64,000 bases of DNA from Clostridia bacterium (GTDB lineage: Bacteria; Bacillota; Clostridia; TANB77; CAG-508), in assembly GCA_030539155.1 (NCBI GenBank), contig JAUNSP010000001.1:1470-65469 (forward strand). Reading direction: 5' to 3'. A program made the translations under genes and the position numbers. Below the pieces are notes generated by a model. The model saw only the letters and a list, made by a program, of their open reading frames with translations. It searched no databases and had not been told where the DNA came from. Numbering within the stretch: position 1 is the first letter of the stretch; the number at the start of each line of letters is the position of its first letter. Below, in pieces: positions 16,328 through 48,574 of the stretch.

Positions 16328-16372
16328 TGCGGACAATACTAATTAATAGATTATTATTGTCCGCTTTTTACT
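16328..16372. terminator. bidirectional rho-independent terminator
   Basis: The hairpin gcggacaatactaattaatagattattattgtccgc is followed by ttttt on plus and preceded by an A-run, which gives T-runs on minus. Confidence 0.65.
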
Positions 16373-17831
16373 ATATACTATAATCACTTTCATTTAACCA
16401 AGTACCTGAAATATCAAATACCCATGATGCATTTTCCATATTTAAAAATATATTGCACACATTTGTAGATGTCGAATCAAAAGCAGAGCCTACATCACTA
16501 GTAATACTTCTTTGGTTTTGGACTCCAAAACTTCCTAAATCAAATACTACTGGTGCCTCTTGAGTTCCTTCGCTACCTACAAATGTAAACATTAAATTCA
16601 TTGTTTGTACATTTGCTGTATTGAATTTTGTACCTAAATAAATTTCCTTCGCCTTCGCTGCATAGAACATTAAATCCATTCTACTAACTTTGCTTGTATC
16701 AAAGTTACATTGTCTAAAATCCAATTTTTTTGCTTTACAACCTCTAAACATCCATGACATATTAGTTACTTTACTAGTATCAAATGCTGTTCCAAAGTTT
16801 AAATTTTGTAGTGAAAAACTATTAAACATATGGTCCATATTCCCCACCTTTGATGTGTCAAATTTTTCCCCCAAATTTAAAATACCTGTTTTATCTTCAG
16901 CTAGTGAACCAAAAGAATCAAACATATAATCCATACCAGTCACATTGCTTGTATCAAAATTTAATCCAAAATTAAGCTCTTGCATTTTTTTACAATTATA
17001 AAACATGCCCCCCATACTACCAGATACATTGCTCGTATCAAAATTACATTTGCTAAAATCTAAACTAGTTAAAGAACTGCATCCAAAAAACATCATATGC
17101 ATATTTATTGTTCTACTTGTATCAAATATTACTATTTGAGCATCATCCATAAAGTTTATAGTTGTTAAATTACTCATTCCCTCAAATAAACTAGCAGACC
17201 TCCATGGTGCAATTACTTTACCATCCTTTCCACCGATAAATATATCATATCCACCTTGTGTATTAGGGCTCCACCAACATTTTACGCTATTTACCTCTTG
17301 ACCTAATGCTGTAATATCTGCTACCCCATATCCTACCGTTGCCTCTAAAATTTCCCCTTCAATGTTCTGTAAAGTGTTATTTGAAAAAATATCACTTATG
17401 AATTGTATCGTTTTTATCTCATTTCTTTTAATGCCTGTATCTAACCAAGAATCATTACCATCTCCATCAGTATCCTTTCTCATAACACTACCATTTTCCT
17501 CGTTAAATATTTTTATTTTATTTCCGTCTAAATATATTACAAAGACCTTTCCATTAATCTTTGCTGCAGTTTCCACTAAATATGTCCTTCCATTTTTTGT
17601 ATCTAAGTCCCTGTCATACCAAGATATTCCATTAATTTTACCTTGCAATTGTTGCTTATACCCCTCTATGGTCAAAGCTGAACCATTATCAACTTCCATT
17701 GCTGTTACTTCCATCTGTAGTTTTTCTAAAACACTTGCAGTTTCATACTGTCCCTTTGCTAATTTTGCTTTTTGGAAAATTCCGTTTTCTCCTAATGTTA
17801 AATTAATTGTAATTCCTGCTAAAATTAGCAT
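16371..17831 (-). CDS. BspA-like / DUF285 leucine-rich-repeat surface protein, apparently lacking its native N-terminus
   Basis: A 486-aa protein with repeated ...F(D/N)TSNV(T/S)xMxxMF... units typical of DUF285/BspA LRRs. The open frame continues only 9 codons upstream (DNTITIVI-M) to a TAA and begins inside a hydrophobic helix, with no basic n-region or leader. Confidence 0.6.
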   Translation of the reverse strand: MLILAGITINLTLGENGIFQKAKLAKGQYETASVLEKLQMEVTAMEVDNGSALTIEGYKQQLQGKINGISWYDRDLDTKNGRTYLVETAAKINGKVFVIYLDGNKIKIFNEENGSVMRKDTDGDGNDSWLDTGIKRNEIKTIQFISDIFSNNTLQNIEGEILEATVGYGVADITALGQEVNSVKCWWSPNTQGGYDIFIGGKDGKVIAPWRSASLFEGMSNLTTINFMDDAQIVIFDTSRTINMHMMFFGCSSLTSLDFSKCNFDTSNVSGSMGGMFYNCKKMQELNFGLNFDTSNVTGMDYMFDSFGSLAEDKTGILNLGEKFDTSKVGNMDHMFNSFSLQNLNFGTAFDTSKVTNMSWMFRGCKAKKLDFRQCNFDTSKVSRMDLMFYAAKAKEIYLGTKFNTANVQTMNLMFTFVGSEGTQEAPVVFDLGSFGVQNQRSITSDVGSAFDSTSTNVCNIFLNMENASWVFDISGTWLNESDYSI

Positions 17832-17878
17832 AATTACAATGGTAATCGTGTTATCTTATGACGAAGTTTTTTAATTTT

Positions 17879-19529
17879 TTAAATAGCCTTTTCAGCTATT
17901 TCATTCTTTTCATTTTGACACATATTTAAGGAATTAAATTTATAATAAACTGTTACTTTTTTATCTTGTGAAACTTGAATCTTATCAACTAATGATACTA
18001 ACATTGTTCTTGTAATATTCTGCATTTTCACAAAATCTTTAACTATTGGTAAAATATCTTCAACTTTATCTTCTTCTTTTTCAAATTGTTTCAATTTTCC
18101 AATATTCAACAACAAGTTATCTCTATTTTCCAATGCTCTATTATAAATTCTATTAAAATCTTCATCCTTAATAATGCCATTATACTTATCATCATAAATT
18201 TTGTCAATCTTTGAATTTAAGTCCTCTAACTTTTTATTCATCAAAGTTATTTGACTCTTTATCATATTTTTTCTATTATTAAATTCTTTTTCGGTTTGTT
18301 TTGCAGAGCCAATATATTTATTAGCTTCAAGATACTCTTTACATCTTTCTCTTATAAGCTTTAATATTTCTTCCGTTAATTTTTCTAAATTATTACTATG
18401 TGGAGTACATAACTTTAAACTTGTTGCTGTTGCATAAGTATTACATCTCACATAAAAAATTATCTTTCCACTTTTCTGTTTTTGAGGACATATACTTAAT
18501 TTTTTACCACATTCTTTGCATTCTAGTATTCCTTTTAATAGCCAATCATAAGTCTTTACTCGTGTTGCAGTCCTGCTTGTTATTTGTTCTTGAACTAAAT
18601 TATATGTTTCTACATCTATTATTGGTGTATGTTTTCCCTCTACTAAAATCCAATCTTCTTCTGGTAATGCAAGTATTTTTTTATTCTTATAGCTTACTTT
18701 TCTCATTGTTCCATTTTTCACATATCCAAGATATACTTTATTTTTTAAAATCTTAACAACAGTATTTCTGTTCCATCTTCGTTTTATTTCATCAACTGTT
18801 CTCGTATGCCTATTTCCAACTACATCACAAGGCAATCTTTGTTCTTCTTTTGTCATTATTTTAGCTATCTCTGTTGGTGTTATTCCTGTTTTAGCCATTT
18901 CAAATATTCTTTTTACTAACGGTGCAATTTCATCATCTACTATATAATGATTTTTATCTAACGGATCTTTCTTATAGCCATAAGCAGGATAAGTAACCAT
19001 TACTTTTCCCTCTTTTGCCCTTGTTTTCTTTCCATTTTTTATTTTCTTCGAGCAATCTCTTAAAAACCATTCATTAAAGAATGTTTTAAATTGAGTTATT
19101 TCTTGTGATGTTTCTATATCTCCTGTATCAATGTCATCACATACTGCAATAAATCTTATATTTTTTTCTATAAAGTATTCTTCTAAATAATAATCTACTT
19201 TTGATGATACTCTGCCAAATCTTGATAAGTCTTTTACAATGACCATATTTATTTTTCCATCTTCAATATCTTTTATCATTCTTTGGAAACCGTGGTCTAT
19301 CAAAGTTAGCTCCAGAATAACCATCATCAGTATAAATATCGTGTATCCTTATTCTATTCTCTCTACAAAAATTTTTTAAAAATATTTTTTGAGTGCTTAT
19401 ACTTCCACTCTCTTTTTCATCTTCTGATGTTTCTTTGACTCCATCTACATTATCTATTTCAATTTTTTCATTAGAAAGTCTTGGATATATCCCTGCCACA
19501 TATCTTTCGGGATTTCTTATTGTTATCAT
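17879..19529 (-). pseudogene. large serine recombinase (TndX/TnpX-like) interrupted by a +1 frameshift near 19300 (could be a sequencing indel)
   Basis: The 88-aa ORF 19263..19529 (MITIRNPERYVAGIYPRLSNEK...SISTQK...DDGYSGANFDRP) is the resolvase catalytic N-terminus, preceded by RBS AGAGGAGG. It continues in another frame as (G)FQRMIKDIEDGKINMVIVKDLSRFGR... through a 482-aa ORF with zinc-ribbon and coiled-coil regions. Deleting one base in ccacggtttcc restores ...FDRPGFQRMIKD... Confidence 0.75.
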
Positions 19530-19605: not shown

Positions 19606-19746
19606 CTAACCTTTTTGAGCATTTTCTTCAAGTTTTTCTAAACAATATTCTTTAAATATATCTTGTAGCAAATCTTCAAGACTTTTTCCATTTTCATTAA
19701 ATATTTCTTCAAATTCATATTCACTTTTTTTATTTTTTTCTTTCAT
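19606..19746 (-). CDS. small acidic hypothetical protein (46 aa)
   Basis: Hand-translated MKEKNKKSEYEFEEIFNENGKSLEDLLQDIFKEYCLEKLEENAQKG with RBS AGAGGTGG 6 nt upstream. It is below the ORF-track size cutoff. Confidence 0.35.
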   Translation of the reverse strand: MKEKNKKSEYEFEEIFNENGKSLEDLLQDIFKEYCLEKLEENAQKG

Positions 19747-19836
19747 TATTACCACCTCTAAAACCACATCGTTTTTACAATGTTATCTATATTTTATTGA
19801 ATAACAGAAACTTATTACTTTTAACTTTCTAATTAT

Positions 19837-20058
19837 CTATTCCTCTTTTAATATTTTATCTGCTCTTTTAATAGCCTCATCTGGAGTATGTAATTCCATT
19901 ATTGCAATCATTTCTTGTGCAAGTTCTTCCTCTTTAAAATCTTTAACTTGTAAATTCTCTGCATTGGCAGTATTTTTAAATGTATGTAATGCTATTACTG
20001 CATAAGCAACTGCTCTTTTCCAATTTTGATAATCTACTTTTACATTTTTATTTTTCAT
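19837..20058 (-). CDS. hypothetical small protein (73 aa) adjacent to the recombinase
   Basis: An ORF starting MKNKNVKVDYQNWKRAVAYAVIALHTFKNTANAENLQVKDF... It occupies the position taken by small accessory/excisionase-like genes next to recombinases. Confidence 0.45.
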   Translation of the reverse strand: MKNKNVKVDYQNWKRAVAYAVIALHTFKNTANAENLQVKDFKEEELAQEMIAIMELHTPDEAIKRADKILKEE

Positions 20059-20437
20059 TTTTACATTTTCCTTTCACTTATAATTTTTTATCAACTACAA
20101 GTGAATTAGTTTCTTCACATAGAGTGTTGCCACTCTCCCTTTTTTAAAGAGCTGTCCCTTTACAACCGTTAGCCAGACAGAAGTATCATAATCACTAATA
20201 TATATCTTCGCCAACATACACTTGCTTTCGTGTACTTTTTCCCTCGTTATATTCGCTATTTAATTTCTAACATTCGCCTTCTTGGAGCTCCATATACTAG
20301 ATAAAGTCTTGTAGTCAATTATGACACTCCAATAAAATTAAGGGTGTATTTGTCAATGTGCAAACATAACAATTCTTTTTGTTATGACTACAATGACAAT
20401 CGACACCCTCAAAATCTTAGTTGAAATTTAAAATTTC

Positions 20438-20638
20438 TTAAATTTTTTTAAACTTTTGTATATTTTGTATTATTTTTGCCTCTATAATAGCTTTACAGTC
20501 TTCATCAAATTTACCGTTTACAATACTATATTTGACAATTAAACCCTCATATTCTTTTAGGATTTTATAAATTGCATTCATATCTTTTTCATATTTTGCT
20601 TTTTTTAGTAAATTTACAAACATATCATTATCCATCAT
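20438..20638 (-). CDS. small protein resembling sigma-70 region 2 (Tn916 Orf8-position)
   Basis: A 66-aa protein. ...FVNLLKKAKYEKDMNAIYKILKEYEGLIVKYS...DCKAIIEAKIIQNIQKF resembles the region-2 helix pattern. Its start overlaps the stop of the upstream sigma-like gene. Confidence 0.45.
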   Translation of the reverse strand: MMDNDMFVNLLKKAKYEKDMNAIYKILKEYEGLIVKYSIVNGKFDEDCKAIIEAKIIQNIQKFKKI

Positions 20639-21048
20639 TTATCTCCTCGTATACTTTCTAAAAATTTCTTAATAGCTTGTGATTTTGAATTAGAGATGCT
20701 ATTTTCACTTACCCCTATAAAAATGGCTACATCTTTAATTGACATATCCTCAATTATATTCAAATACAATATAAGTTTTTGTCTATCAGATAATCTTTTC
20801 ATTGCATTATAATATCTAGGATCTGACATCTCATTTTCCAACTTTTTATAATTGATTTTTTCCTCCAAAGCACGAAAAATGCCCTTATCAAAATATGATA
20901 AAGACATTTTCTCAACCAAACCATCTGTTAAATTTAATTCAACTTTTCTTCTACAAGACATTTTTTTCTTATAATTTAATGACTCATTCGCAATTATTCT
21001 TGTAATAAAACTTGTAAATGTTGCTCTTATTTCTGCATTACTTACCAA
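20635..21048 (-). CDS. sigma-70 family region-4 HTH protein (Tn916 Orf7-like), TTG start
   Basis: A 137-aa protein. ...LSDRQKLILYLNIIEDMSIKDVAIFIGVSENSISNSKSQAIKKFLESI matches the sigma-70 region 4 HTH. The start is TTG at 21048 with RBS GGAGGAGGTGAG upstream. Confidence 0.65.
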   Translation of the reverse strand: MVSNAEIRATFTSFITRIIANESLNYKKKMSCRRKVELNLTDGLVEKMSLSYFDKGIFRALEEKINYKKLENEMSDPRYYNAMKRLSDRQKLILYLNIIEDMSIKDVAIFIGVSENSISNSKSQAIKKFLESIRGDK

Positions 21049-21403
21049 ACGAACTCACCTCCTCCCAATTTCTTAATTGGGGGAAATTAAGTTAAAAGGC
21101 TTGTCCTTTGTGAGTCCTTTTAGTAATATTCTAATGTATAATAAAATAACCAACTCACACAAAATAAAATTGTATGAGTAGGCTACTGTGTAATATATAT
21201 TATATTAAAATTCAATTTTTCCTTTCCTAAAACTATGCTAAATCTTGCACACCGTCTTGAGTTCATTGACTTTTTTTCTACTGCCCTCGTCATAATAGCA
21301 TATTTTATGTGTCGAATACTGTCGAAGTTTGCAAAAAGCACAAAAAAATATACGAAAATTGTAAAATTAACTTTCATATACTTTTTTCTACTATTTCATA
21401 AAA

Positions 21404-21736
21404 TTATAATGACTCCAAAAACTCTTTAATTGCTGCATTTAATAATCTGGTTACGGTAATTCCAGTTTTTTTATTCATCTTTTGCAAATCCCTTAAATTC
21501 TTTTCCCTTATCATAATACTTCTATAAGTTACAGTTTCTCTTTTAGGTTTCTCATAATAAGTAGGATTGTTTTTTACTACATAGTCTTCAATACAAACAT
21601 TGACTATCTCTCCAACAGTTGCACAAAATCTATTTCTAGTAAGTTTTATTACCTTTTCATAAAGTGTATCATCTATATTTATAGACTTTTTTATTGTTGG
21701 GTTATTTATATCATATAACCTGTCAATTGCACTCAT
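21404..21736 (-). CDS. tandem ribbon-helix-helix (two RHH repeats in one chain) DNA-binding protein, paralog A
   Basis: A 110-aa protein with two internal repeats fitting the RHH pattern: INIDDTLYEKVIKLTRNRFCATVGEIVNVCIEDYV and IMIREKNLRDLQKMNKKTGITVTRLLNAAIKEFLE. It aligns residue-by-residue with ORF 22728..23075. Confidence 0.55.
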   Translation of the reverse strand: MSAIDRLYDINNPTIKKSINIDDTLYEKVIKLTRNRFCATVGEIVNVCIEDYVVKNNPTYYEKPKRETVTYRSIMIREKNLRDLQKMNKKTGITVTRLLNAAIKEFLESL

Positions 21737-21918
21737 CTTTCAACCTCCTTATCCTCGTTTACGAATAAATAAATTATAATAATTTTTCATTTTAAATAAT
21801 ACTAGCAACTTTTCTTCTTTAACGAGTATAAATGGGTTAGACTATTGTCGAATTTTATAGTATAATGTATTTACACTTTATGAATACAGAATATAAATAT
21901 TTATGAAAGGAGGCTTTT

Positions 21919-22359
21919 ATGAAATTTCCAGATAATTTACTAGAATATTTATCTGATTCTGTCAATGTCTTACAAGCAGGAATACTTGTTACTGATTTAA
22001 CTAATATTGTTTATTCTAATGTTAGTTATTATAACTTTCCTGATACTTATGCTAATAAAGAAATTAGTACCGATATAAAAAATACTATAAGCAAATGGTC
22101 TAATACTAAAGACTTTGAAGAATCATTTTTTGAAATGCGTACAACAGATACTATAAACATTATTAACAATGATACTTCTAATTATACTGGTCAAATAATA
22201 TTTCCTATTTATCACAAAGGAAAACTTGCAGGAACTTTTATATGTTTTAGACTTCACAAAGATTATGTAGATACAAGTGTAAAACCTGCAATGACAACAA
22301 GACATTTTGTTGAACTAATGAGCAATGATAACTATATTTTGCAAAAGGGAGAATTATAA
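21919..22359 (+). CDS. hypothetical protein (146 aa)
   Basis: An ORF with an AAAGGAGG RBS, first gene of a 2-gene plus-strand operon bracketed by the two tandem-RHH genes. Confidence 0.5.
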   Translation: MKFPDNLLEYLSDSVNVLQAGILVTDLTNIVYSNVSYYNFPDTYANKEISTDIKNTISKWSNTKDFEESFFEMRTTDTINIINNDTSNYTGQIIFPIYHKGKLAGTFICFRLHKDYVDTSVKPAMTTRHFVELMSNDNYILQKGEL

Positions 22360-22360
22360 T

Positions 22361-22633
22361 ATGGAGAAAAAAGGAATTTTTGAGAATGAAGACTTAAATT
22401 TAATGATTGAATTATTTGAAAAATATTCTGATAATCTTAACGAAAATAAAGATTACAAAAAATACTGTAATAGGCTTTCAGAAATAACAGAATTAGTAGA
22501 AAAATTACCAAAAGAACAAATGAGTCTATTTGAAGAAGCAGACCAATTATACTGTCTAACTTCTAATTATGAAAAGTGCTTATTTTATTATCTAGGATTA
22601 CAAAAAGGTATTGGGATAGGCGAAATAAAATAG
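22361..22633 (+). CDS. hypothetical protein (about 91 aa)
   Basis: MEKKGIFENEDLNLMIELFEKYSDNLNENKDYKKYC... with the likely start at ATG 22361 and an AAAAGGGAGAA RBS. It is followed by a terminator. Confidence 0.45.
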   Translation: MEKKGIFENEDLNLMIELFEKYSDNLNENKDYKKYCNRLSEITELVEKLPKEQMSLFEEADQLYCLTSNYEKCLFYYLGLQKGIGIGEIK

Positions 22634-22682
22634 CTCCTTATATAAACACATATATAACAAGCTATAATTGAATTTTATAAAA

Positions 22683-22728
22683 TTAAGATAAGTTGATAAG
22701 TACACCATTAACTTATCTTATTTTTATC
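22683..22728 (+). terminator. rho-independent terminator of the 21919-22633 operon
   Basis: The hairpin aagataagttgataagtacaccattaacttatctt followed by atttttatc. Confidence 0.6.
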
Positions 22729-23075
22729 TATTTAATTTGTTCTAGTGCATTACTTATTGCAATGTTCACAAGTTTGTAGATTGATGTATGATATTTTTCA
22801 CTTAATCTATCTAACTCTTTTACAAGTGATTCTCTTATTAGCAATGAATGCTTAACTGAAATTTCATTTTTCTTTTTTATATAGACTCCTATATCTTCAC
22901 TTTTTGATAATTCCATAATTGATGCATTTATAAGTTTATTTACAGAGGCATCATATTTTTTATCTGATAACTTTTTCAAACTTTCATATAATGAATTATC
23001 AATTTCTATTGTTTTTTTAACTAAATGTTCTTTACTCCAAAATGTATCAAATGCTCCCATACGATTTTCCTCCAT
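22728..23075 (-). CDS. tandem ribbon-helix-helix DNA-binding protein, paralog B
   Basis: A 115-aa protein. IEIDNSLYESLKKLSDKKYDASVNKLINASIMEL and LLIRESLVKELDRLSEKYHTSIYKLVNIAISNALE show the same two-repeat RHH architecture as ORF 21404..21736. Confidence 0.55.
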   Translation of the reverse strand: MEENRMGAFDTFWSKEHLVKKTIEIDNSLYESLKKLSDKKYDASVNKLINASIMELSKSEDIGVYIKKKNEISVKHSLLIRESLVKELDRLSEKYHTSIYKLVNIAISNALEQIK

Positions 23076-23203
23076 TCTTGTATATTTTACTATGCTAGAA
23101 TGCAGATTTTAACCGTGCTGGTATGCAGAATTTTTTGTCAAAAAAAAGAAATATGCAAATATATACATATTTCTTTTCACTTATACAACTTGTAATTTAT
23201 TAT

Positions 23204-23431
23204 TTACCAATTTGATACAATTACATAAAAATACATTAGTGGAATGATTACTATTATAATTCCTATTATAAATATAATCCACAATAAAATTCTTATCCAT
23301 AATTTGCACTTTTTCCCGTTCTTTTTTTTGTATATATTACACACAATAAATCCAATAATTGTTGGAATCAAAATTTCCACACCAATTATTAACATAATAA
23401 TTAAAAGACCAACACCAGCTATTGCACCCAT
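23204..23431 (-). CDS. small hydrophobic membrane protein (75 aa)
   Basis: Two TM helices flank a KKKNGKKCK loop. An AAAGGAGAAG RBS lies upstream, and the gene is preceded by IR-containing leader module A. Confidence 0.5.
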   Translation of the reverse strand: MGAIAGVGLLIIMLIIGVEILIPTIIGFIVCNIYKKKNGKKCKLWIRILLWIIFIIGIIIVIIPLMYFYVIVSNW

Positions 23432-23487
23432 GATTTTTTCTTCTCCTTTATAACATCATGCTATTTTATTGTTATTTATATTATCAT

Positions 23488-23523
23488 AAAAGCAGATAAT
23501 TAGCAATGTCAAGTATCTGCTTT
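23488..23523 (-). promoter_or_regulatory. inverted-repeat operator/promoter module A (AAAGCAGATA-N15-TATCTGCTTT with TTGACA in the spacer)
   Basis: A 10-bp perfect inverted repeat whose spacer carries TTGACA, with TATGAT 18 nt downstream (minus orientation), 5' of gene 23204..23431. It is homologous to module B. Confidence 0.45.
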
Positions 23524-23541
23524 ATAACCTGTAATTTGTAA

Positions 23542-23748
23542 CTACCTATTATTTTCATCAATCGCTTTCTTGCTATTTCTATACATCATATTAAAGATTA
23601 AACCAAATATCATTGGTATAACAGCATAACCTGCGTTTACTTGTCCTTTATTATATAGTACATATCCTGCCCCAGCAAATGTTAAAATTAAAAATATAAT
23701 ATATAATATTAAAAATACTTTTACTTTCATTTTTTCTTTTTTAATCAT
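23542..23748 (-). CDS. small membrane protein (68 aa)
   Basis: MIKKEKMKVKVFLILYIIFLILTFAGAGYVLYNKG...IPMIFGLIFNMMYRNS has two TM helices and is preceded by leader module B. Confidence 0.5.
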   Translation of the reverse strand: MIKKEKMKVKVFLILYIIFLILTFAGAGYVLYNKGQVNAGYAVIPMIFGLIFNMMYRNSKKAIDENNR

Positions 23749-23797
23749 AAATAAAACTCCTTCTCAAATTACTATTTTATTGTTACTATAATACCAT

Positions 23798-23832
23798 AAC
23801 GACAGATAATTAACAAGTAACTATCTGTCGTT
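23798..23832 (-). promoter_or_regulatory. inverted-repeat operator/promoter module B (AACGACAGATA-N13-TATCTGTCGTT)
   Basis: An 11-bp inverted repeat sharing the CAGATA...TATCTG arms and the flanking ctattttattgtta block with module A. TTGTTA -35-like and TATTAT -10-like hexamers lie in the same relative positions. Confidence 0.45.
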
Positions 23833-23835
23833 GTA

Positions 23836-24693
23836 TTATTTTTTTCTTACAGGTATCCATATTTCACAATAATATCTATCATCTTCAGTTCCTTTTTTGT
23901 AGTTTGCTGGATCTGAATACATTTCAACATTATACCCATCAGCTATTTCATATTCTGTAGAATTTGGTAACCATTCTTTAAATATTTTTTCATTCATTTC
24001 AGCCACACTTTTATCTGCTCTACCAATACAAGAAAATATTGCCCAAGTATGTTTTGGTATTTCTTTTACAATGAAATCTTTAGGAATTTCTTTACCCTCT
24101 AAATAATCATCACAAATCATATACTCAAACTCATTGCCACTCATTGTACTATCGATATTAACTCCATATTTAGTACAAATGTTACTTAACTGACTTTTCG
24201 CAAAAAATGACTTCCATAATTTTGGCACTTCTTCATATGCTGAATCATACTTCATTATTTTAGATAATCCTATTACCTTAAATGCTTCTTTTTCTTCAAT
24301 TTTATACTCCATAGTATAACCACCTTTCAAAATTAAATTTACTTTAAGTGGAGAAAACTCTTTTATTGTTTTTCCACCTTTGCGAATAGAAGATGGATTA
24401 GTACCGTGAAATCTTTTGAATGCTTTAGTAAAACTGTCTGCTGATTCATATCCATACTTTAATGCAATATCTATTACATTTTCTTTAGTATTAATTAAAT
24501 CTTGTCCTGCAAGTGATAATTTTCTGTTTCTTATATATTCGCCTAATGAATAATCACATAATATAGAAAAACCTTTTTGCAAATAGAATGGCGATATGCA
24601 AACGTACTTTGCAATATCATCTATAGTTATATCATTTGTAATGTTTTTTTCTATATAGTCTATTGCTTTACTTATTGATTCAATCCAATTCAT
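23836..24693 (-). CDS. AraC-family transcriptional regulator with C-terminal GyrI-like small-molecule-binding domain
   Basis: A 285-aa protein with the N-terminal AraC HTH ...ITIDDIAKYVCISPFYLQKGFSILCDYSLGEYIRNRKLSLAGQDL. The C-terminal half, YTMEYKIEEKEAFKVIGL...YYCEIWIPV, is typical of GyrI-like effector domains. Confidence 0.8.
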   Translation of the reverse strand: MNWIESISKAIDYIEKNITNDITIDDIAKYVCISPFYLQKGFSILCDYSLGEYIRNRKLSLAGQDLINTKENVIDIALKYGYESADSFTKAFKRFHGTNPSSIRKGGKTIKEFSPLKVNLILKGGYTMEYKIEEKEAFKVIGLSKIMKYDSAYEEVPKLWKSFFAKSQLSNICTKYGVNIDSTMSGNEFEYMICDDYLEGKEIPKDFIVKEIPKHTWAIFSCIGRADKSVAEMNEKIFKEWLPNSTEYEIADGYNVEMYSDPANYKKGTEDDRYYCEIWIPVRKK

Positions 24694-25081: not shown

Positions 25082-28000
25082 TTACTTGTTGTACTTATAT
25101 TCTTCTTTATCTTCAGCAACCATTTCTGTATAATCACATTCATCTTCGTTAACTTTATATTCAATAAAGTCATTATCTTCATCAACATTATTTAATCCAA
25201 AATACTTTTCAAAGAATTTTAGGATTTTTCCAATAATAGTTTGTTTTCTTTCATTTCTATTTCCACCACCAAATCTTCTCATTGGTGGTAATATCTTCTC
25301 TATATCAGTTCCTGTTGTTTTAACTTGTCCATCTCTAAAAGAATTATCAATAAATTTTCTAGTTTCTGTTTCATTTAAATCTTCATCTGATATAAGATTT
25401 TTTAAATCTGTTTCTTTTTGCTCCTTAACAAATTTATTCCAATCTCCATATACATCTGTTTTTGCATTTATTTTTGAAATAAATCCCTCTATTAATTCTT
25501 TCTTGGAGCGAAGTGCTAAACTTGATTTTATTGCCTTATCAATAGACACTAATATTTCCTTGTCAGTACAATTTGATTGATGATATTTAGCAACTAGCAT
25601 TAAGATATAATCTATATTTACTTCTACTTGTTTTACAAGTTCCATTTCAAATACTAGATCATCTTTTATACTTTCACTATCATCATTTCCTGGTCTTGGT
25701 TTAAATTCTTCGTATAAATCTGTATATGTTCCTATATAATCTTGGAAATCTCTTGGAGATAGTAACTCATTTCCCTCAAATTTATCAAATGATGATAATA
25801 TATTTCTTAATCTTAATATATTTCCCATTGATACTATAAAATCTTTTTTAGCTTTTTCTCCTATTATTTTTTCTCCTAATGGATATTTTTGAAGTAACAA
25901 TGCAATTCTTTCTTCATATCCTAGTTGTTTGTTGCCTTTTTCATCTTCATATCCATAATAGTAATCTTCATAAGATTTTAGAAGAACTATTCCACTTGCA
26001 TTTTTATCTCCAAATAGAGCTATTGCATCATTAGTTTGGTCTTGCAAGTTTCTGAAACATACTATATTTCCATAAGATTTTACTGAATTTAATATACGGT
26101 TTGTTCTTGAAAATGCTTGTATTAGTCCGTGCATTTTTAAGTTTTTATCTACCCATAATGTATTTAAAGTAGTTGCATCAAATCCTGTTAAGAACATATT
26201 TACAACTATAAGCAAATCAACTTCTCTGTGTTTTACTCTATCTGATAAGTCTTTGTAGTAATCTTGGAATCCGTTTCCCTCTGATGAAAAGTTTGTTTTA
26301 AATTTCTTGTTATACTCTTTTATTGCAAAGTCTAAAAATTCTCTTGAACTTTGATCCAATAAATCTGTCTCAAAACCTTCATCATCCAAAATACCATCTG
26401 AAGTATCTTCTTCATTTTGTGCAAATGAATATATTGTAGCAATACTCAAATCTATATTTTTTTCTTCTAATTGCTTTTTAAATTCCAAATAATATTTCTT
26501 TGCCATTGGAATTGATGCTACTGCAAACATTGAGTTAAATCCATTCATTCTCTTTCCTTTTAAATCGTAGAATGAACTTCTTTTTGTTTTTTGGTCAAAG
26601 TGTTCTATTATATAGCTTACAACTTTGCTAACTCTTTCGTGAGATGCAAGTGCCTCCTCTGTGTTTATAGCCTTTACTTCTTTGTCTGTCATATTTTCTT
26701 TTTGTTTTAAAGTATTTATATAATCAATTCTAAAAGGTAATACATTTCCATCATTTATTGCATCTACTATTGTATATGTATGTAATTTATCTCCAAATGC
26801 TTGTGCAGTTGTGCAGAAATCTGGATTAACCTTATTTACTGCATTTTTAGCAAATATAGGTGTTCCTGTAAATCCAAACAAGTGATAATTTTTGAAATTA
26901 CTAACTATCATCTTGTGCATATCTCCAAAATGTGAGCGATGACATTCATCAAATATTAAGACTAAATGTTTCTGATATACAGGATGATTTTTGTTTCTTT
27001 TTACAAATTCACTTAATTTTTGAATTGTTGTTACAATTATTCTTGAAGTATTATCTTCTAATTGTTTCTGCAATACTCTTGTACTTCTGTTTCCATTTGC
27101 AGCACCTTTTTCAAATCTGTCATATTCTTTCATTGTTTGATAGTCTAAATCTTTTCTATCTACTACAAACAATACTTTATCTATATAATCTAAGCCACTT
27201 GCAAGTTGTGCAGTCTTAAATGATGTTAATGTTTTTCCAGAGCCTGTTGTATGCCATATATAACCACCAGCCTCTATTGTTCCCATTTTTTTATAATTAG
27301 TTGCTACTTGTATTCTGTTTAGTATCTTTTCTGTTGCTACTATTTGATATGGTCGCATAACAAGTAGTAAATCTTCAGATGTAAATACACAATATTTTGT
27401 TAGTATATTCAATATTGTATGTTTTGAGAAGAAAGTTCTAGTAAAATCAACTAAATCTGGAATAACTTTATTACTTCCATCAGCCCAAAAAGATGTAAAT
27501 TCAAAGCTGTTACTTGTTTTTTTACTTTTATTTCTTGTATTTGTTTGTTCTTTTATATGACTTTCTCTTGTAGTATTTGAATAGTATTTTGTATTTGTTC
27601 CATTTGATATAACAAATATTTGCACATATTCATATAAACCACTACCTGCCCAAAAACTATCTCTTTGGTATCTGTTTATTTGGTTAAAAGCCTCTTTTAA
27701 AGGAACTCCTCTCCTTTTAAGTTCAATATGAACAAGAGGTAATCCGTTTACAAGAACAGTTACATCATATCTATTATCATAATTCCCATTATTCTCTACA
27801 TATTGATTTATTACTTGTAATCTATTGTTATGAATATTCTTTTTATCTATTAAATAAATATTTTTAGATGTTCCATCATCTCTTTTTAAAACTTGAATAT
27901 AGTCTTCTTGTATTTTTCTCGTTTTTTCTACAATACCATCATTATTATTTGAAATATTGTTATTGAAAAATCTTTCCCATTCGCTATCTGTAAATTTATA

Positions 28001-28216
28001 ATCATTTAATAATTCAAGTTCTTTACAAAGATTATCTTTTAGTGAATTACTATCGTGAATTTTTAAATAATCATATCCTTGTTCTCCAAGCATTCTTATA
28101 AACTCATTTTCTAATGCAGATTCACTTTGATAGGCATCTGATTTCTTTTTTAATGGCTCATATTCTGTTACAACTGTGGAATCATTCATTTCCATTACTA
28201 CATTATATTTACTCAT
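25082..28216 (-). CDS. hsdR: Type I restriction enzyme R subunit
   Basis: A 1044-aa protein with SF2 helicase motifs (HTTGSGKT Walker A, FDECHRS DEAH-like box). It lies downstream of hsdS and hsdM in the operon arrangement. Confidence 0.9.
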   Translation of the reverse strand: MSKYNVVMEMNDSTVVTEYEPLKKKSDAYQSESALENEFIRMLGEQGYDYLKIHDSNSLKDNLCKELELLNDYKFTDSEWERFFNNNISNNNDGIVEKTRKIQEDYIQVLKRDDGTSKNIYLIDKKNIHNNRLQVINQYVENNGNYDNRYDVTVLVNGLPLVHIELKRRGVPLKEAFNQINRYQRDSFWAGSGLYEYVQIFVISNGTNTKYYSNTTRESHIKEQTNTRNKSKKTSNSFEFTSFWADGSNKVIPDLVDFTRTFFSKHTILNILTKYCVFTSEDLLLVMRPYQIVATEKILNRIQVATNYKKMGTIEAGGYIWHTTGSGKTLTSFKTAQLASGLDYIDKVLFVVDRKDLDYQTMKEYDRFEKGAANGNRSTRVLQKQLEDNTSRIIVTTIQKLSEFVKRNKNHPVYQKHLVLIFDECHRSHFGDMHKMIVSNFKNYHLFGFTGTPIFAKNAVNKVNPDFCTTAQAFGDKLHTYTIVDAINDGNVLPFRIDYINTLKQKENMTDKEVKAINTEEALASHERVSKVVSYIIEHFDQKTKRSSFYDLKGKRMNGFNSMFAVASIPMAKKYYLEFKKQLEEKNIDLSIATIYSFAQNEEDTSDGILDDEGFETDLLDQSSREFLDFAIKEYNKKFKTNFSSEGNGFQDYYKDLSDRVKHREVDLLIVVNMFLTGFDATTLNTLWVDKNLKMHGLIQAFSRTNRILNSVKSYGNIVCFRNLQDQTNDAIALFGDKNASGIVLLKSYEDYYYGYEDEKGNKQLGYEERIALLLQKYPLGEKIIGEKAKKDFIVSMGNILRLRNILSSFDKFEGNELLSPRDFQDYIGTYTDLYEEFKPRPGNDDSESIKDDLVFEMELVKQVEVNIDYILMLVAKYHQSNCTDKEILVSIDKAIKSSLALRSKKELIEGFISKINAKTDVYGDWNKFVKEQKETDLKNLISDEDLNETETRKFIDNSFRDGQVKTTGTDIEKILPPMRRFGGGNRNERKQTIIGKILKFFEKYFGLNNVDEDNDFIEYKVNEDECDYTEMVAEDKEEYKYNK

Positions 28217-28226
28217 AACTTGCTCC

Positions 28227-29408
28227 TTAATTTTCTTCTTTTAATTCTTTAAATGTTAATAATTTATCTCTGTAATATTCATATTGCTTTTGTCTTGCTT
28301 CTATTTCAGCAGGTAAACCTTCTGAAATGTTATTTGTTAACTCATAAAATTTTTCCAATATGTTTGCAATCTTCTCTTGTTTATCTAATGTAGGAATTGG
28401 AATCACTATTTCTTTTAGTGCTGGGACACTAGAATGAACTACTTTGCTTTTTACTTTCCCCTTACTTTTTTGCATTTGAGCATTAGTTGTTGATAGTACA
28501 TAGGCTAAATATTTCGGATTCTGTTTATGTTTCATCACAACAATATCGCCACCTGCTAAGCACTTATTTTGTCCTAGATATACTATGGACTTTCCTATTT
28601 CTTCAACACTTTCACCTGTTATTGCAAACAATACATCTCCATATTCAAAATATTTTTTTGATTTTATTTTATTTATATCAGTATGTGATATGCAATTATC
28701 AAAAGTTATATTATATGATGTATATATTTCTCCATATCTAACACAATCAATTCCATCCTCTGTTACTTCATCTCTTTTGATTCCTGCTCCTCTATACATA
28801 TCTGTTGCAATTTCATCTAAACTTTTATATTCAACATCTTCATTTTCAAATTTTAAAATTTCATTTCTATAATATTCATATTGTTTTTGTCTAGCTTTCA
28901 GCTCTGCTGAAAGCTCTGTAAAATCGTCTAAAATACGGACAATTTCGCATTGTACTTCCAATGGAGGTACAGGCACAGTTAATTGAGAATATATACTTAT
29001 CCAATGTCTTGTGTGTGTTCCTGGCTCAAATTTAATGCAAGACATTGCATAATAAATATATCTAAAATTAACATTTTCATTTATAGGTCTAAGTATTTTC
29101 ATTGCTGAAGATTTAACTTTAAAACCAAAATCCACCCAATGGAAGCCTGTAGTAAAATCATCAAATATAATAGTCGGTTCTTTTTTACTAGCAATATAAA
29201 TTCCGTTTGTTTCGTTTGTGTAACCTAATATGAATGTTTGTCCAGCCGTTAATACTGGTATATCGTATGAATCATCATATTTAGTGGATTTAACAATATA
29301 CTTAGTTGGCTGTTCATATTTTAAGCAACTTTCCAATTTCTTATATTCGACTCCATTCGGACATAATCGCTCAATTAATTCTTCTAATTTGCTCATATTA
29401 CACCTCAA
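28227..29408 (-). CDS. hsdS: Type I restriction-modification specificity subunit (two TRDs); likely start at MSKLEEL (29396)
   Basis: A 393-aa protein with two target-recognition halves separated and followed by the conserved repeat EIARQKQYEYYRNEIL / EIEARQKQYEYYRDKLL. It overlaps the hsdM stop. Confidence 0.85.
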   Translation of the reverse strand: MRCNMSKLEELIERLCPNGVEYKKLESCLKYEQPTKYIVKSTKYDDSYDIPVLTAGQTFILGYTNETNGIYIASKKEPTIIFDDFTTGFHWVDFGFKVKSSAMKILRPINENVNFRYIYYAMSCIKFEPGTHTRHWISIYSQLTVPVPPLEVQCEIVRILDDFTELSAELKARQKQYEYYRNEILKFENEDVEYKSLDEIATDMYRGAGIKRDEVTEDGIDCVRYGEIYTSYNITFDNCISHTDINKIKSKKYFEYGDVLFAITGESVEEIGKSIVYLGQNKCLAGGDIVVMKHKQNPKYLAYVLSTTNAQMQKSKGKVKSKVVHSSVPALKEIVIPIPTLDKQEKIANILEKFYELTNNISEGLPAEIEARQKQYEYYRDKLLTFKELKEEN

Positions 29409-30951
29409 TTTCTGAAATTATTTTACTAATTTCGTCACGAAGTACTTGCTCTCTTGCAACTATTGTTTCAATTTCTTTGTTTAATTCTACAATGTCAATT
29501 TTTTCTCTTGTATCTTCTTGTTCAACATAAGTTGATACAGATAAATTATAGTCATTTTCTTCTATCTCTTTATTTGAAACAAGTTTAGATACATATTCTT
29601 TATCTTGTCTATCTGCAAATATTTTAACAATATTTTCTATATTTTCATCTGTTAATTTATTGTTGTTTGTAACTTTTACACATTCATTTGTTGCATCTAT
29701 AAATAATGTACTATTATCTTTTTTACTCTTTTTTAATACCATTATACAAGTTGCAATAGATGTACCAAAGAATAAGTTTCCTGGCAATTGAATTATGCTA
29801 TCTACGAAGTTATTATCTATCAAATATTTTCTGATTTTTTGTTCTGCTCCACCTCTATATAAAATTCCTGGGAAACAAACAATTGATGCAGTTCCATTTG
29901 TTGCTAACCAAGATAAAGAGTGCATTATAAATGCAAAATCTGCTTTTGATTTTGGTGCTAATACTCCTGCTGGAGAATATCTTGGGTCATTAATTAAAAG
30001 TGCATTATCATCTCCTGCCCATTTTATTGAATATGGAGGATTAGACACTATAACCTCAAAAGGCTCATCATCCCAATGTTGTGGTGTAAGTAATGTATCT
30101 TCACAAGCTATATCAAATTTATCATATCCTATATCGTGTAAAAACATATTTATCCTGCATAAGTTATAAGTAGTAATATTTATTTCTTGTCCATAGAAAC
30201 CATTTCTAACATTTTCTTTTCCAAGTATTTTAGATGCTTTTAATAAAAGTGAGCCAGATCCACAAGCTGGGTCATACACTTTGTTTACTGATGTTTTTCC
30301 TACTATTGCAAGTTTAGTTAAAAGTTCACTAACTTCTTGTGGTGTATAAAATTCTCCACCAGACTTACCTGCATTAGAAGCATACATACTCATTAAAAAT
30401 TCATAAGCATCTCCAAAAGCATCAATTTTGTTATCTTGATAATTTCCAAGAGGAATATTGGCAATTCCATCTAATATTTTAACTAATTTTTCATTTCTCT
30501 TTGCAACTGTTGCTCCTAATTTATTACTATTAACATCTATATCAGCAAATAAACCATAAAAGTCATCCTCGCTTTCTGCTCCTTTTGCTGAGTTTTCAAT
30601 GCTATTAAATACTTTTTCTAATGTTTCATTCAAGTTTTCATCATTTTTTGCTCTTTGACAAATATTACAAAACAATTCAGATGGCAATATAAAAAATCCT
30701 TTTTCTTTTACTAAACTTGTTCTTTCTGATTCTGCCATTTCATCTGATATTTTTGAATAATCAAATTCTTTATCTCCAGCTTTTCTTTCTCCATCATTTA
30801 TATATTTAGTAATGTTTTCTGATATGTATCTATAAAACATTATTCCTAATATGTATTGTTTGAAATCCCACCCATCTACTGAGCCTCTTAAATCATCTGC
30901 TATTGACCATATTGCTTTATGTATTTCTTCTCTTTCTCTTGAATTATTCAT
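29398..30951 (-). CDS. hsdM: Type I restriction-modification N6-adenine DNA methyltransferase subunit
   Basis: A 517-aa protein with HsdM N-domain, AdoMet motif I (DPACGSGSLL) and motif IV NPPYS. Confidence 0.9.
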   Translation of the reverse strand: MNNSREREEIHKAIWSIADDLRGSVDGWDFKQYILGIMFYRYISENITKYINDGERKAGDKEFDYSKISDEMAESERTSLVKEKGFFILPSELFCNICQRAKNDENLNETLEKVFNSIENSAKGAESEDDFYGLFADIDVNSNKLGATVAKRNEKLVKILDGIANIPLGNYQDNKIDAFGDAYEFLMSMYASNAGKSGGEFYTPQEVSELLTKLAIVGKTSVNKVYDPACGSGSLLLKASKILGKENVRNGFYGQEINITTYNLCRINMFLHDIGYDKFDIACEDTLLTPQHWDDEPFEVIVSNPPYSIKWAGDDNALLINDPRYSPAGVLAPKSKADFAFIMHSLSWLATNGTASIVCFPGILYRGGAEQKIRKYLIDNNFVDSIIQLPGNLFFGTSIATCIMVLKKSKKDNSTLFIDATNECVKVTNNNKLTDENIENIVKIFADRQDKEYVSKLVSNKEIEENDYNLSVSTYVEQEDTREKIDIVELNKEIETIVAREQVLRDEISKIISEIEV

Positions 30952-31738: not shown

Positions 31739-32518
31739 TTATTTTACTAACTTTGAATGTAACACTACCCTATATTTATTATCATTAGCACAAGTAGAAA
31801 GTGTTAAAATGCTATCGGCACTATTTACATCAACATTAAAATCGTAAACACTTCTATTTTTTGCATTTTCAATATAATTCATAAATTCTTCATCTAAATT
31901 GAAATTTATTGTGGTATCATAATTATCTTTTTCAATTTGATATACTGCAAAAACTTGATATTCAAATTGACCTTGCTCGGTTATAAAAATCACTTTTCTA
32001 TTTTCTTGATTTTCATACCAAGATTTATTTAAAATATTTTTAAGTGTTGCAAACATACTACCATCTCTGCGATTATGTCCATATACTATTATATTTCTAT
32101 CCGTTCCATCTATTTTATTTCTATAATCTGCAAATACCCAACCTGCCCCATTTAATGACTTATCAAAACTATGCGTCAAATAAAAATCATTATCATTTTT
32201 CTTTACAACTGGATATTCTATGTCAGTCCCATTTACTTTAATCCAAGCTACTGTATCTGAATTAGTTGCTTTTAATTGTTCAAAGTCTATCTTATAACTT
32301 TTATCTTTACTTTCAGTATTTGAATCTTCGTTGTTATCTTCAACTGTTACAGCATTTGAAATTTCATCGATTAGTGTTTCAGTATCTTTGTTGTTTTTTA
32401 TCCAAGTTATTATGTTATATACACAAATAATAATGCTTATAAAAAAAACAATAAGTATTATGTTTAAGATTATTTTCTTCTTTTTTGTATTTTCTTTCTT
32501 GTGTTTTGATTTTCTCAT
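31739..32518 (-). CDS. srtB: class B sortase
   Basis: A 259-aa protein with an N-terminal TM anchor, catalytic His (VYGHN), TLSTC active-site Cys and a C-terminal Arg region. The adjacent substrate carries NPKTG. Confidence 0.8.
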   Translation of the reverse strand: MRKSKHKKENTKKKKIILNIILIVFFISIIICVYNIITWIKNNKDTETLIDEISNAVTVEDNNEDSNTESKDKSYKIDFEQLKATNSDTVAWIKVNGTDIEYPVVKKNDNDFYLTHSFDKSLNGAGWVFADYRNKIDGTDRNIIVYGHNRRDGSMFATLKNILNKSWYENQENRKVIFITEQGQFEYQVFAVYQIEKDNYDTTINFNLDEEFMNYIENAKNRSVYDFNVDVNSADSILTLSTCANDNKYRVVLHSKLVK

Positions 32519-32579
32519 ATATACATCTTTCCTTTTTGATAAAAATAGGCTAGAACAAAATTCTAACCTATTTTATATT

Positions 32580-33152: not shown

Positions 33153-33162
33153 ATTCTTCCTC

Positions 33163-34692: not shown

Positions 34693-34821
34693 TTCCTCCT
34701 AAATTTTTTCTTTATTTTAAAATATAAAAAACATCTATACTGTTTTAATTATTTATCCCCTCCTCTTATGTAAAAAATTAATATTTTTGACTATTATATA
34801 TGTTTATTATAATTAAATAAA

Positions 34822-34846
34822 CATATATTTCGCATTTGTCATTGAC
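34822..34846 (-). promoter_or_regulatory. conserved upstream cis-element, copy 1 (GTCAATGACAAATGCGAAATATATG on minus; contains the palindrome TGTCAtTGAC)
   Basis: A 25-mer that is 22/25 identical to the site at 38429..38453. It lies about 45-70 nt upstream of TATAAT hexamers for the minus-strand operon starting at 34692, in the divergent region shared with the regulator gene at 34912. Confidence 0.5.
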
Positions 34847-34911
34847 TTTTTGGGAATTGATTTTATTTTTAATATATGCTATTTTATAATATAGTAATAT
34901 AGAACAATGAA

Positions 34912-36657: not shown

Positions 36658-36704
36658 AAACTTAAAGTCTGTAAGCTTTTTTCTATTCATATTATTTTAT
36701 CGCT

Positions 36705-37178: not shown

Positions 37179-37196
37179 AATAATCTCCCCCTAATT

Positions 37197-48571: not shown

Positions 48572-48574
48572 AAT

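Follow-up and report, generated by a model that had tools for sequence, protein, structure and literature searches.

TndX, the recombinase of Tn5397, targets DNA encoding the conserved Fic domain, and such a ubiquitous target is thought to suit a promiscuous element (PMC4430133). Durrant et al. (2022, PMC10083194) describe a multi-targeting DUF4368 clade, in which close relatives among the recombinases occupy a wide range of target genes. TndX-like enzymes belong to it, 63% of its members carry DUF4368, and some have target motifs of at least 20 bp; some members are proposed to have evolved to recognise sequences that occur several times in the host genome (PMC10083194). Other elements interrupt a gene, namely skin (recombinase SpoIVCA) in sigK, SPbeta (SprA) in spsM, A118 in comK and gin in gerE (PMC5025042, PMC5595907, PMC3556126).

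Here we describe a locus in a 64,000-nucleotide stretch of a Clostridia metagenome-assembled genome (MAG), hereafter the window, in which an integrative conjugative element (ICE) has very probably integrated, site-specifically, within the 5' part of the coding sequence of a BspA/DUF285 surface-protein gene. An event of this kind is known; the target is unusual here, and the recombinase gene is oddly frameshifted. Like Tn5397 of Clostridioides difficile, the window element is conjugative, encodes at one end a large serine recombinase that would serve in integration and excision, inserts inside ORFs, and prefers as its target the DNA for a conserved protein domain. However, the recombinases of the two elements share only ∼32% identity, their central dinucleotides differ, with GA for Tn5397 against a predicted AC for the window element, and the target is Fic in the former and a prepilin-like N-terminal helix in the latter, whose recombinase gene is, moreover, frameshifted. 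The conjugation module of Tn5397 is of the Tn916 type, whereas the window element carries MobA/VirD2, VirD4, VirB4, TrbL_4, a 2174-aa SNF2 protein, sortases and a SpaA adhesin. Tn4451 of Clostridium perfringens encodes another member of this subfamily of large serine recombinases, TnpX, but is small, mobilisable and non-conjugative, with a GA crossover and an uninterrupted recombinase gene.

As in the multi-targeting DUF4368 clade, more than one gene is occupied: at least seven by a related 9.2-kb element (P0163, described below) and three by the window element. The N-terminal methylation-motif helix of surface proteins, by contrast, was not found as a target in the description of that clade or elsewhere in the literature searched. 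The locus also resembles skin, SPbeta, A118 and gin in that the element lies inside a coding sequence and that precise excision by a serine recombinase restores the gene, as we propose for the window gene. Those elements each have one dedicated target gene and are often excised at a developmentally timed moment, whereas the target motif of the window element is common to a large paralogous family and programmed excision is without evidence here.

A BspA/DUF285 gene lacks its 5' end beside the recombinase gene

The features at the junction, all on the minus strand, are as follows.

16371..17831, minus strand: BspA/DUF285 surface-protein ORF, 5'-truncated; 486 aa as called (MDO5556632.1), body intact, with 0 internal stops
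17832..17841, minus strand: target-derived bases left ahead of the start codon, reading C ATT GTA ATT (the close of the Thr codon, then I-V-I)
17842..17843, minus strand: predicted AC dinucleotide of the crossover, positions 1 and 2 of the Thr codon in I-T-I-V
17844..17878, minus strand: element-side junction arm (attR P arm), with a TCATAA box at 17861-17856
17879..19529, minus strand: TndX/TnpX-like gene for a large serine recombinase, 1651 nt including start and stop codons

The protein encoded by the window ORF contains DUF285 (PF03382, E 1.4e-22, 80 bits in a profile search) and is named by NCBI a BspA family LRR surface protein. The first-pass annotation had described a gene that starts inside a hydrophobic helix, behind an in-frame TAA and 47 bp from the recombinase stop codon, and its coordinates, stop and gap were all found to be correct. 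The recombinase stop lies at 17881-17879 and is separated from the window ATG by 47 nt (17878-17832). The 486-aa protein begins MLILAGITINLTLGENG; outwards from its ATG, the in-frame residues are I-V-I-T-I-T-N-D and next comes the TAA at 17858-17856, and across the break the gene reads TAA-DNT-ITIVIMLILAG. The ORF starts in the middle of the helix, after the stop, and has no N-terminal export or anchoring signal.

Eight homologues (P0002, 3, 5, 6, 11, 13, 32 and 51) were near-identical to the window protein from ITIVIMLILAG on, and all of them extended further 5' with ...(K/S)GITLI(A/T)LI, in the form ...GITLIALI-ITIVIMLILAGITINLTLGENG. In these paralogues the leader and the helix are complete and each gene has its own full 5' end; their accessions form one block with those of the window proteins, which places them apparently in the same MAG. 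What the window gene lacks, namely the leader and the initial half of the helix, is present in them. As judged from this comparison, made across the break at the level of protein, the window gene is missing its first ∼20 to 25 codons. No empty-site orthologue of the window gene was present in the databases, the next best match being 43% identical, and exact-protein look-ups of the window gene and its paralogues (P0001, P0005, P0006) gave no record.

The NCBI pipeline gives a 486-aa protein from the ATG at 17831, with no 'partial' or pseudogene flag, as would be the case if the gene were not truncated at all, its native start being this ATG or a nearby non-canonical one and its proximity to the recombinase a coincidence. 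Intact relatives starting at the same Met, which the first-pass annotation had set against its own proposal, were not encountered; on the contrary, 8/8 close homologues have the leader and GITLIALI ahead of that position. The same holds for the non-ATG start with a good RBS that it had also considered, since neither a GTG or TTG start nor a GGAGG-like RBS occurs in the 47 nt 5' of the window ATG. Furthermore, the sequence just upstream is element DNA that is joined elsewhere to other genes. A native start has practically no probability, and is already refuted as far as sequence data allow. A search of the minus strand from 17832 to 17900 revealed no promoter-like site, nor was a terminator detected. 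The truncated gene is thus treated by NCBI as an intact BspA protein, though it has neither start nor export signal, and the same annotation problem is to be expected at every insertion of this element family.

The element end joins different genes at the same codon

The first-pass annotation had located the att junction within 17832..17858, and identity to independent copies of the element was found to stop inside that interval, at 17842. L083 (100% identity) and L082 (99.8%) follow the window up to and including this base, the last one shared, past which their flanks are AATAATA... and GATAATTGTACTTTTGATTTTGGCAGG (ITIIVLLILAG). The stretch 17832..17841 is the first to differ among independent insertions of the window element. 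L081 has the same flank as the window. Three different genes are thus seen to adjoin the window element end, each of them broken at one and the same codon of the same motif, and the 99.8 to 100% identical copies of this end come from other sequencing runs.

Since the link from the junction to the body of the window gene crosses a ∼130-nt segment repeated among the paralogues, a real insertion in the BspA family could have been joined during assembly to the wrong paralogue body. This 5' segment is near-identical, at the protein level, in at least nine paralogues, many of whose contigs end there ('partial' entries), and the independent L081 contig breaks off 25 nt beyond the junction, in keeping with a repeat. 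Against such a chimera, the window contig is continuous from 16 kb of chromosomal genes across the junction through 46 kb of element; L081 repeats the first 25 flank bases of the window, which differ from those of L082 and L083; and paired reads normally span a repeat of 130 nt. We consider a wrong join unlikely, and even if true it would alter only the identity of the paralogue, leaving the mechanism unaffected.

Site-specific insertion was also apparent in four related lineages, whose recombinases are 80% (L084/85), 66-67% (L086/87), 62% (L090-L104) and 61% (L105) identical to that of the window. In all four, the element closes with TCATAA-N12-AC and leads, at T-I-I/V-V-L/M-L..., into a downstream gene that has the same orientation, and the TCATAA box is found 12 nt from the AC in 5/5 lineages. 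The TAA of this box (17858-17856) is the very in-frame stop named in the first-pass annotation.

The 9.2-kb P0163 element, with a ∼61-62% identical recombinase, made both junctions visible, at four loci. Its attL at these loci comprises an RBS, an ATG and M..GITLIALVIT, and deletion of the element in silico restored ORFs of 409 to 639 codons (read from the preceding stop) at all four. The attP showed dyad symmetry at 15/19 positions, and the sole sequence common to attL and attR was AC. Only one junction of the window element is available, and for this reason its crossover, a dinucleotide that the first-pass annotation had left to be mapped, was placed by homology to the P0163 element, at the AC at 17843-17842.

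A recombination site inside the conserved 5' coding region of a multi-copy family, with a near-identical 5' end, a conserved upstream region and a truncated gene that is otherwise intact, would also be consistent with a programmed rearrangement, in which one expressed 5' cassette is swapped among silent BspA genes in the manner of a shufflon or of Mycoplasma vsa, varying a surface antigen. However, a full conjugative element carries the recombinase at its tip; what is found between the junctions in the relatives is not a gene copy but the 9.2-kb mobile element, flanked by the gene halves in direct orientation; the paralogues own complete 5' ends; and the site is single-copy within the 64 kb, in either orientation, as DNA and as peptide. 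The shufflon idea was rejected, a second copy of the site being absent from the 64-kb window, and a programmed rearrangement is highly unlikely.

Insertion of a serine-recombinase element, to which the first-pass annotation had attributed the 5' truncation, is thus supported by the paralogues, by the same-codon junctions and by the related lineages. In the mechanism that we propose, the TndX/TnpX-like recombinase at the tip of the element would catalyse integration, with crossover at the AC of the Thr codon within the helix-encoding DNA. Insertion would part the promoter, start codon, leader and first ∼8 helix residues from the remainder of the gene; the former should be found past the other end of the element, and the latter would stay behind the in-frame TAA without a start signal. 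Precise excision would restore the window gene. The missing 5' fragment was not located, as the element continues past the window end.

The target is a prepilin-like motif shared by a paralogous family

The targeted DNA encodes a hydrophobic helix, which belongs to an N-terminal motif of prepilin-like type, GITLIAL-[VI]-I-T-I-[IV]-V...LILAG. Intact N-termini scored 17.8 to 21.8 bits against N_methyl (PF07963), with one of four passing the gathering score of 21.2, and gave weak matches to NCBIfam pilin and pseudopilin models (E ∼0.01). The residue at +5 after the cleavage-site Gly (in G|I-T-L-I-A-L) is Ala, not Glu; the motif is pilin-like but non-canonical.

The motif is present in at least nine near-identical gene copies, apparently all in this MAG. 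When the N-terminal peptide was compared with GTDB species genomes, a scan whose matches did not include the window's own genome, 80 loci of up to 67% identity were obtained (one 22-residue match reached 77%), which shows the motif to be widespread and multi-copy. As many genes carry it, the redundant family offers many interchangeable landing sites, and as it repeats across paralogues, one element appears multi-targeting yet sequence-specific. The locus offers a clear natural example in which a serine recombinase has as its target a short protein-coding motif that recurs throughout a paralogous family. It extends the precedent of Tn5397 and Fic, and the attP/attB pair of ∼40 bp, with its AC core, could be tested as a tool. 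No report linking a serine recombinase to a pilin-like target was found in the literature searched. An exact search for the element end, CTTCGTCATAAGATAACACGATTAC, gave 0 matches in JGI metagenomes and IMG/VR, and a metagenome scan with the window recombinase protein confirmed no relative.

The recombinase gene contains a conserved frameshift

The recombinase gene is not one uninterrupted frame, but is divided by one extra base (C at 19292) into the following pieces.

19529-19263, minus strand: ORF A, 88 aa, with Ser19
19327-17879, minus strand: ORF B
19289..19298, minus strand: conserved frameshift site AGA CCA C GGT, with the extra base C at 19292 and the zero-frame codon CGG at 19292-19290

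ORF A contains the motif YPRLS19NE, with the serine nucleophile, and the PF00239 resolvase catalytic domain was recognised in both pieces (E 1.4e-11 and 3e-4). C-terminal to it lie the recombinase domain (PF07508, E 4.7e-19) and a zinc ribbon (PF13408, E 8.9e-8). DUF4368 (PF14287) reached 22.8 bits in the window recombinase against a cut-off of 25 bits, and a precomputed PF14287 match exists in several homologues of 62-63% identity. The best annotated match was an annotated TndX (32.6% identity over 95% of the length), and the catalytic domain of TnpX (2MHC) aligned to residues 39-136 (E 3.5e-24), straight through ...NRPGFQ....

The same extra base was present in L084/85 and L105, and AGA CCA C GG is common to three lineages including that of the window. 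Between the window and L084 recombinases, dS was 0.93, and dN/dS was 0.08 and 0.15 for the two parts. The zero-frame codon CGG accounts for 1/386 Arg codons in the ORFs of the element and 3/170 in those of the host. A shift from CCA in the P site to CAC in the +1 frame would not allow re-pairing. The GGAG upstream of the site in the window, ∼19 nt away, is GGTG in the other lineages, and no conserved Shine-Dalgarno-like stimulator was evident among the three.

Programmed +1 frameshifts occur at slow codons in prfB (CUU-UGA), Ty1 (CUU-AGG) and Ty3 (GCG-AGU). The recombinase gene resembles these in its conserved shift site, its rare zero-frame codon and the purifying selection on both frames. 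Unlike them, it has a CCA that cannot re-pair as CAC and no evident conserved stimulator, and its recoding is putative. The frameshift is common to three lineages, is under strong purifying selection and lies in an element that has moved recently, features that make it a candidate for programmed +1 recoding, the rare codon being CGG. Since its gene is frameshifted, activity of the window recombinase is something that we infer. Reports of recoding in serine recombinase genes were not found in the literature searched. A conserved frameshift in an apparently active recombinase raises the testable question of whether integrase is limited by recoding at a rare codon; if this were true, it would be a previously undescribed throttle on integrase production in a mobile element.

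In more speculative terms, a TndX-like clade may have specialised on the prepilin-like helix codons of dozens of surface-protein genes in uncultured gut Clostridia, its recombinase being made only by +1 recoding at CGG (CCA-CGG-U) in the window lineage and one other; we offer this tentatively, as somewhat less probable than its converse. If such specialisation were true, conjugative and small mobilisable elements alike would gain many low-cost, reversible landing sites.

Content and extent of the conjugative element

The integrated segment is an ICE of at least 46 kb, which runs from 17843 to beyond 64000 and has its right end at 17842/17843. Beyond the recombinase gene it contains the following features.

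19606..24693, minus strand: regulatory and accessory genes, small ORFs and ribbon-helix-helix proteins
20635-21048, minus strand: sigma-70 region-4 protein, then a 66-aa ORF (20438-20638)
23836-24693, minus strand: AraC/GyrI-like regulator
25082..30951, minus strand: cargo, type I restriction-modification (hsdR 25082-28216, hsdS 28227-29408, hsdM 29398-30951)
31739..44269, minus strand: surface/adhesion module, with sortases (31739-32518 and 42607-43176) and other ORFs
34912-36657, plus strand: HTH gene inside the surface/adhesion module
38606-41743, minus strand: SpaA/thioester-domain adhesin
44518..58589, minus strand: conjugation/mobilisation module, including DUF3846
46090-46770, minus strand: M23 peptidase
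46739-48571, minus strand: VirB4-like ATPase
49747-50607, minus strand: TrbL_4
50963-52885, minus strand: VirD4-type coupling protein
53130-54071, minus strand: MobA/VirD2 relaxase
54050-54340, minus strand: NikA/MobC
54431-55366, minus strand: ParB
56774-57247, minus strand: LytTR
58583..64000, minus strand: SNF2-related giant protein (P0241), the 3' 1805 codons of 2174 aa

The ICE machinery on the segment comprises a PF03432 relaxase, a PF02534 VirD4, a VirB4-like AAA_10/TraG P-loop protein and TrbL_4. Its mobility is reflected in the at least 99.8% identical copies in three different genes, from different sequencing runs. The element extends past the end of the window, because the giant SNF2 protein is 2174 aa long in the NCBI contig and its gene runs at least 1107 nt further. 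Within the 64-kb window, no pilin-like fragment, P'-like arm or attL was found, and a regular expression for AC-N11-13-TTATGA after a pilin-like fragment gave 0 matches. A contig with the far end of the element was not obtained by look-up of the 268-aa protein encoded at 57339-58145 (Logan-listed) or by scans of collections.

The best long-contig homologue, L106, has a giant protein 63% identical to that of the window element, and its conjugation genes are syntenic. Its far end lies beside a germination-protease gene and has no pilin-like fragment. The L106 element probably uses another integration module, and the conjugation and integration modules are, on the evidence of this far end, not always coupled.

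The BspA/DUF285 gene lacks its 5' end

The open reading frame adjoining the conjugative element encodes a protein matching DUF285 (PF03382; E 1.4e-22).

16371..17831, minus strand: BspA/DUF285 surface-protein open reading frame, 486 aa, N-terminus MLILAGITINLTLGENG

In frame 5' of its ATG, a TAA (17858-17856) is followed by eight sense codons, D-N-T-I-T-I-V-I, and a 47-nt spacer separates the gene from the stop codon (17881-17879) of a large serine recombinase gene with Resolvase, Recombinase and zinc-ribbon domains. Coordinates and domain matches agreed with the first-pass annotation, which had described this arrangement and attributed it to 5' truncation by a serine-recombinase element. The non-ATG start with a good ribosome-binding site that would have spoken against truncation was absent from the spacer, which contained neither a GTG or TTG start nor anything resembling a Shine-Dalgarno sequence; a consensus scan of minus strand 17832-17900 yielded no promoter-like sites and no terminators.

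A search of 5.8 billion proteins recovered the window protein itself (P0001; NCBI MAG 'Clostridia bacterium', 67,815-nt contig) and other homologues with just 38-43% overall identity. Eight of these (P0002, P0003, P0005, P0006, P0011, P0013, P0032 and P0051) were nearly identical to it in the first ~45 residues, and the comparison with intact relatives proposed in the annotation bore out the truncation, since all eight carried an upstream leader and a GITLI-type helix start, ...(K/S)GITLI(A/T)LI-ITIVIMLILAGIT(I/L)NLTLGENGIF..., where the window gene reads TAA-DNT-ITIVIMLILAG. Thus, the window gene is truncated at its 5' end, missing the leader and the first ~8 residues of the helix. The remnant has no internal stops, which fits a recent or reversible insertion. 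Judging by accession numbers (MDO5557100-MDO5557940, in one block with window proteins MDO5556632-685), the eight homologues are probably paralogues within the window's own MAG. Four of them (P0002, P0003, P0005 and P0051) show a conserved stretch 5' of the leader (translation NFKGxEKELLKNGRGAEIFSGSNFGAQ...), at which several contigs stop; this suggests a repeated 5'UTR/promoter cassette ahead of each family member.

The same element end precedes different genes

Three Logan contigs assembled from other sequencing runs (L081-L083) carry the 474-aa recombinase open reading frame in identical form.

Near-identical copies of the right end of the element (contig; identity to window; end of match; flank)
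L081; 100% over 6531 nt; 17817, the contig end; same as window
L083; 100%; exactly 17842; AATAATA
L082; 99.8%; exactly 17842; GATAATTGTACTTTTGATTTTGGCAGGAGTGAGTT, that is, (I)T-I-I-V-L-L-I-L-A-G-V-S

One element end therefore adjoins three different genes, each time at the same motif and at the same codon within it, as is characteristic of site-specific insertion. The element/target boundary is 17842|17841, within the interval 17832..17858 where the att junction had been expected, as identity to the independent copies stops at 17842. Because the link from junction to gene body runs through a family repeat of ~130 nt, the assembler could have joined the junction to the wrong paralogue body, but we regard such an error as very improbable.

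Four other recombinase lineages showed identical behavior, with the same element end before the same motif.

Related recombinases (identity to that of the window, by alignment)
L084/85; 80%
L086/L087; 66-67%; LRR_5/BspA-like genes downstream
L105; 61%
P0163; 62%; encoded by a 9.2-kb element that also carries a rolling-circle Rep gene

In all five lineages the element closes with TCATAA-N12-AC (window box at 17856-17861, minus strand; the others in L084, L086 and L100-L105). The TAA in this box is the in-frame stop before the window gene; since the box lies exactly 12 nt from the AC each time, this stop shares the reading frame of the interrupted gene in every case and prevents translation from running on from the element into the remnant.

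The 9.2-kb P0163 element lies 5' of seven or more distinct genes that all read ITII(V/I)LLILA..., and where 10-kb flanks were available both junctions were seen, at four loci. On its left side, an RBS and ATG lead into M..(N/K)GITL(I/V)ALVIT, which is joined to element DNA, and in-silico removal of the element restored open reading frames that contain ...GITLIALVITIIVLLILAG... and span 409-639 codons, counted from the preceding stop. Reconstruction of attP gave AGTCATAAAATAATAAAATT-AC-CATTTTGTTACGTTATGACG, with dyad symmetry at 15 of 19 positions, and AC is the sole sequence shared by attL and attR. The crossover dinucleotide that the annotation had proposed mapping was thereby located in this relative; in the window, the crossover is placed by homology only, at AC 17843-17842, which would be positions 1 and 2 of the Thr codon. 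At the left junction of the 9.2-kb element in L100-L104 (~2400-2530), the orphaned 5' fragment forms a mini-ORF that could be expressed (RBS, ATG, M..GITLIALVIT + ILLRYDDIRKYSNNSKFLLPINC*), annotated as a 41-75-aa gene in assemblies.

Target and proposed mechanism

Intact N-termini of the target type scored 17.8-21.8 bits against PF07963, the N-terminal methylation motif (gathering score, 21.2), and have Ala, not Glu, at +5; the motif is pilin-like but non-canonical. A GTDB scan found it at several loci per genome across many uncultured gut Clostridia; the surface-protein family that shares it is large and presumably dispensable. In L086, an intact member (9573-10766; MKRQNGITLVALIITIIVMLILVAV...) lies immediately 3' of the interrupted one, so target genes can form tandem arrays.

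In the best-supported account, the serine recombinase would integrate the element into DNA coding for a pilin-like signal's hydrophobic helix, a motif repeated over this family of presumably dispensable genes; integration would inactivate one member, and precise excision would bring it back. For the window, its own attL, the adjoining recombinase as the responsible enzyme and reversibility are inferred. A gene hit by a mobile element is an ordinary event; the target logic and the conserved frameshift described below stand out.

The nearest annotated protein to the window recombinase is TndX of Tn5397 (32.6% identity); among solved structures, the TnpX catalytic domain (2MHC) comes closest. TndX steers Tn5397 into DNA coding for a conserved Fic domain (PMC4430133), which makes Tn5397 the closest functional precedent. 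The conjugation genes of the window element are not related to Tn916. The case also fits the pattern of the DUF4368-rich clade of 'multi-targeting' large serine recombinases, TndX among them, some members of which are proposed to have evolved toward sequences found at several genomic sites (Durrant et al., PMC10083194). The specific target appears to be undescribed so far, no description having been found in the searchable literature.

Content of the conjugative element

All sequence from 17879 to the window end belongs to one conjugative element.

Minus strand: sigma-70 region-4 protein, then a small 66-aa ORF; ribbon-helix-helix proteins (regulatory genes)
23836-24693, minus strand: AraC/GyrI-like regulator, carried as cargo with the integration module on one side and the conjugation module on the other
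25082-30951, minus strand: complete type I restriction-modification system (hsdR, hsdS, hsdM), cargo in the same interval
31739-44269: adhesion module with a 1045-aa SpaA-repeat protein with thioester domain (38606-41743), two sortases and a Rib-like 509-aa protein
Conjugation genes: M23 peptidase, VirB4-like ATPase, TrbL_4, VirD4 coupling protein, MobA/VirD2 relaxase
Further genes: NikA/MobC, ParB, giant SNF2-related protein with its frame still open at 64000

The SNF2-related protein has 2174 aa in the source contig, so the element reaches at least 1.1 kb beyond the window; the 64-kb window contained no conserved 5' DNA, GITLI-type peptide or plausible left junction.

The recombinase gene carries a conserved frameshift

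The recombinase gene (17879-19529, minus strand) measures 1651 nt from ATG to stop, one base too many.

19289-19298, minus strand: shift site, extra C at 19292 in ...GAT AGA CCA C GGT TTC...

Full-length relatives read CGA CCT GGA TTT here, and the TnpX alignment passes straight through NRPGFQ. Every Logan copy has the extra base, and so do L084/85 (80% amino-acid identity) and L105 (61%); L105 belongs to a different clade and has a 90%-identical relative, P0176, without the shift. Between the window and L084, dS is 0.93, near saturation, dN/dS is 0.08 5' and 0.15 3' of the shift, resembling values between intact genes, and there are no further stops. Near-identical shifted copies lie in three different target genes; the shifted element has occupied three sites recently. 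CGG, the zero-frame codon at the shift site, is almost unused in this 27% GC sequence: of 386 Arg codons in the element ORFs, it accounts for 1. Conservation, purifying dN/dS, recent movement and the rare CGG together argue for expression by recoding.

The simplest candidate form would be +1 ribosomal frameshifting at a 'hungry' CGG; what counts against it is that CCA is unable to re-pair in the +1 frame, and no stimulator was evident. Alternatively, the gene may work as two polypeptides that assemble, the element may be mobilized in trans, or a gene-conversion patch may spread a defective allele. Recoding in a serine recombinase gene was not found reported in the searchable literature. From these sequence comparisons, the frameshifted gene nevertheless looks functional.

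Just before it, nothing but short ORFs of unassigned role (19606-20058) lie in the window element, and the 66-67% relatives carry an additional, small resolvase-domain gene just 5' of the large recombinase (L086, 5304-6014; L087, 9213-9689; 236 or 158 aa).
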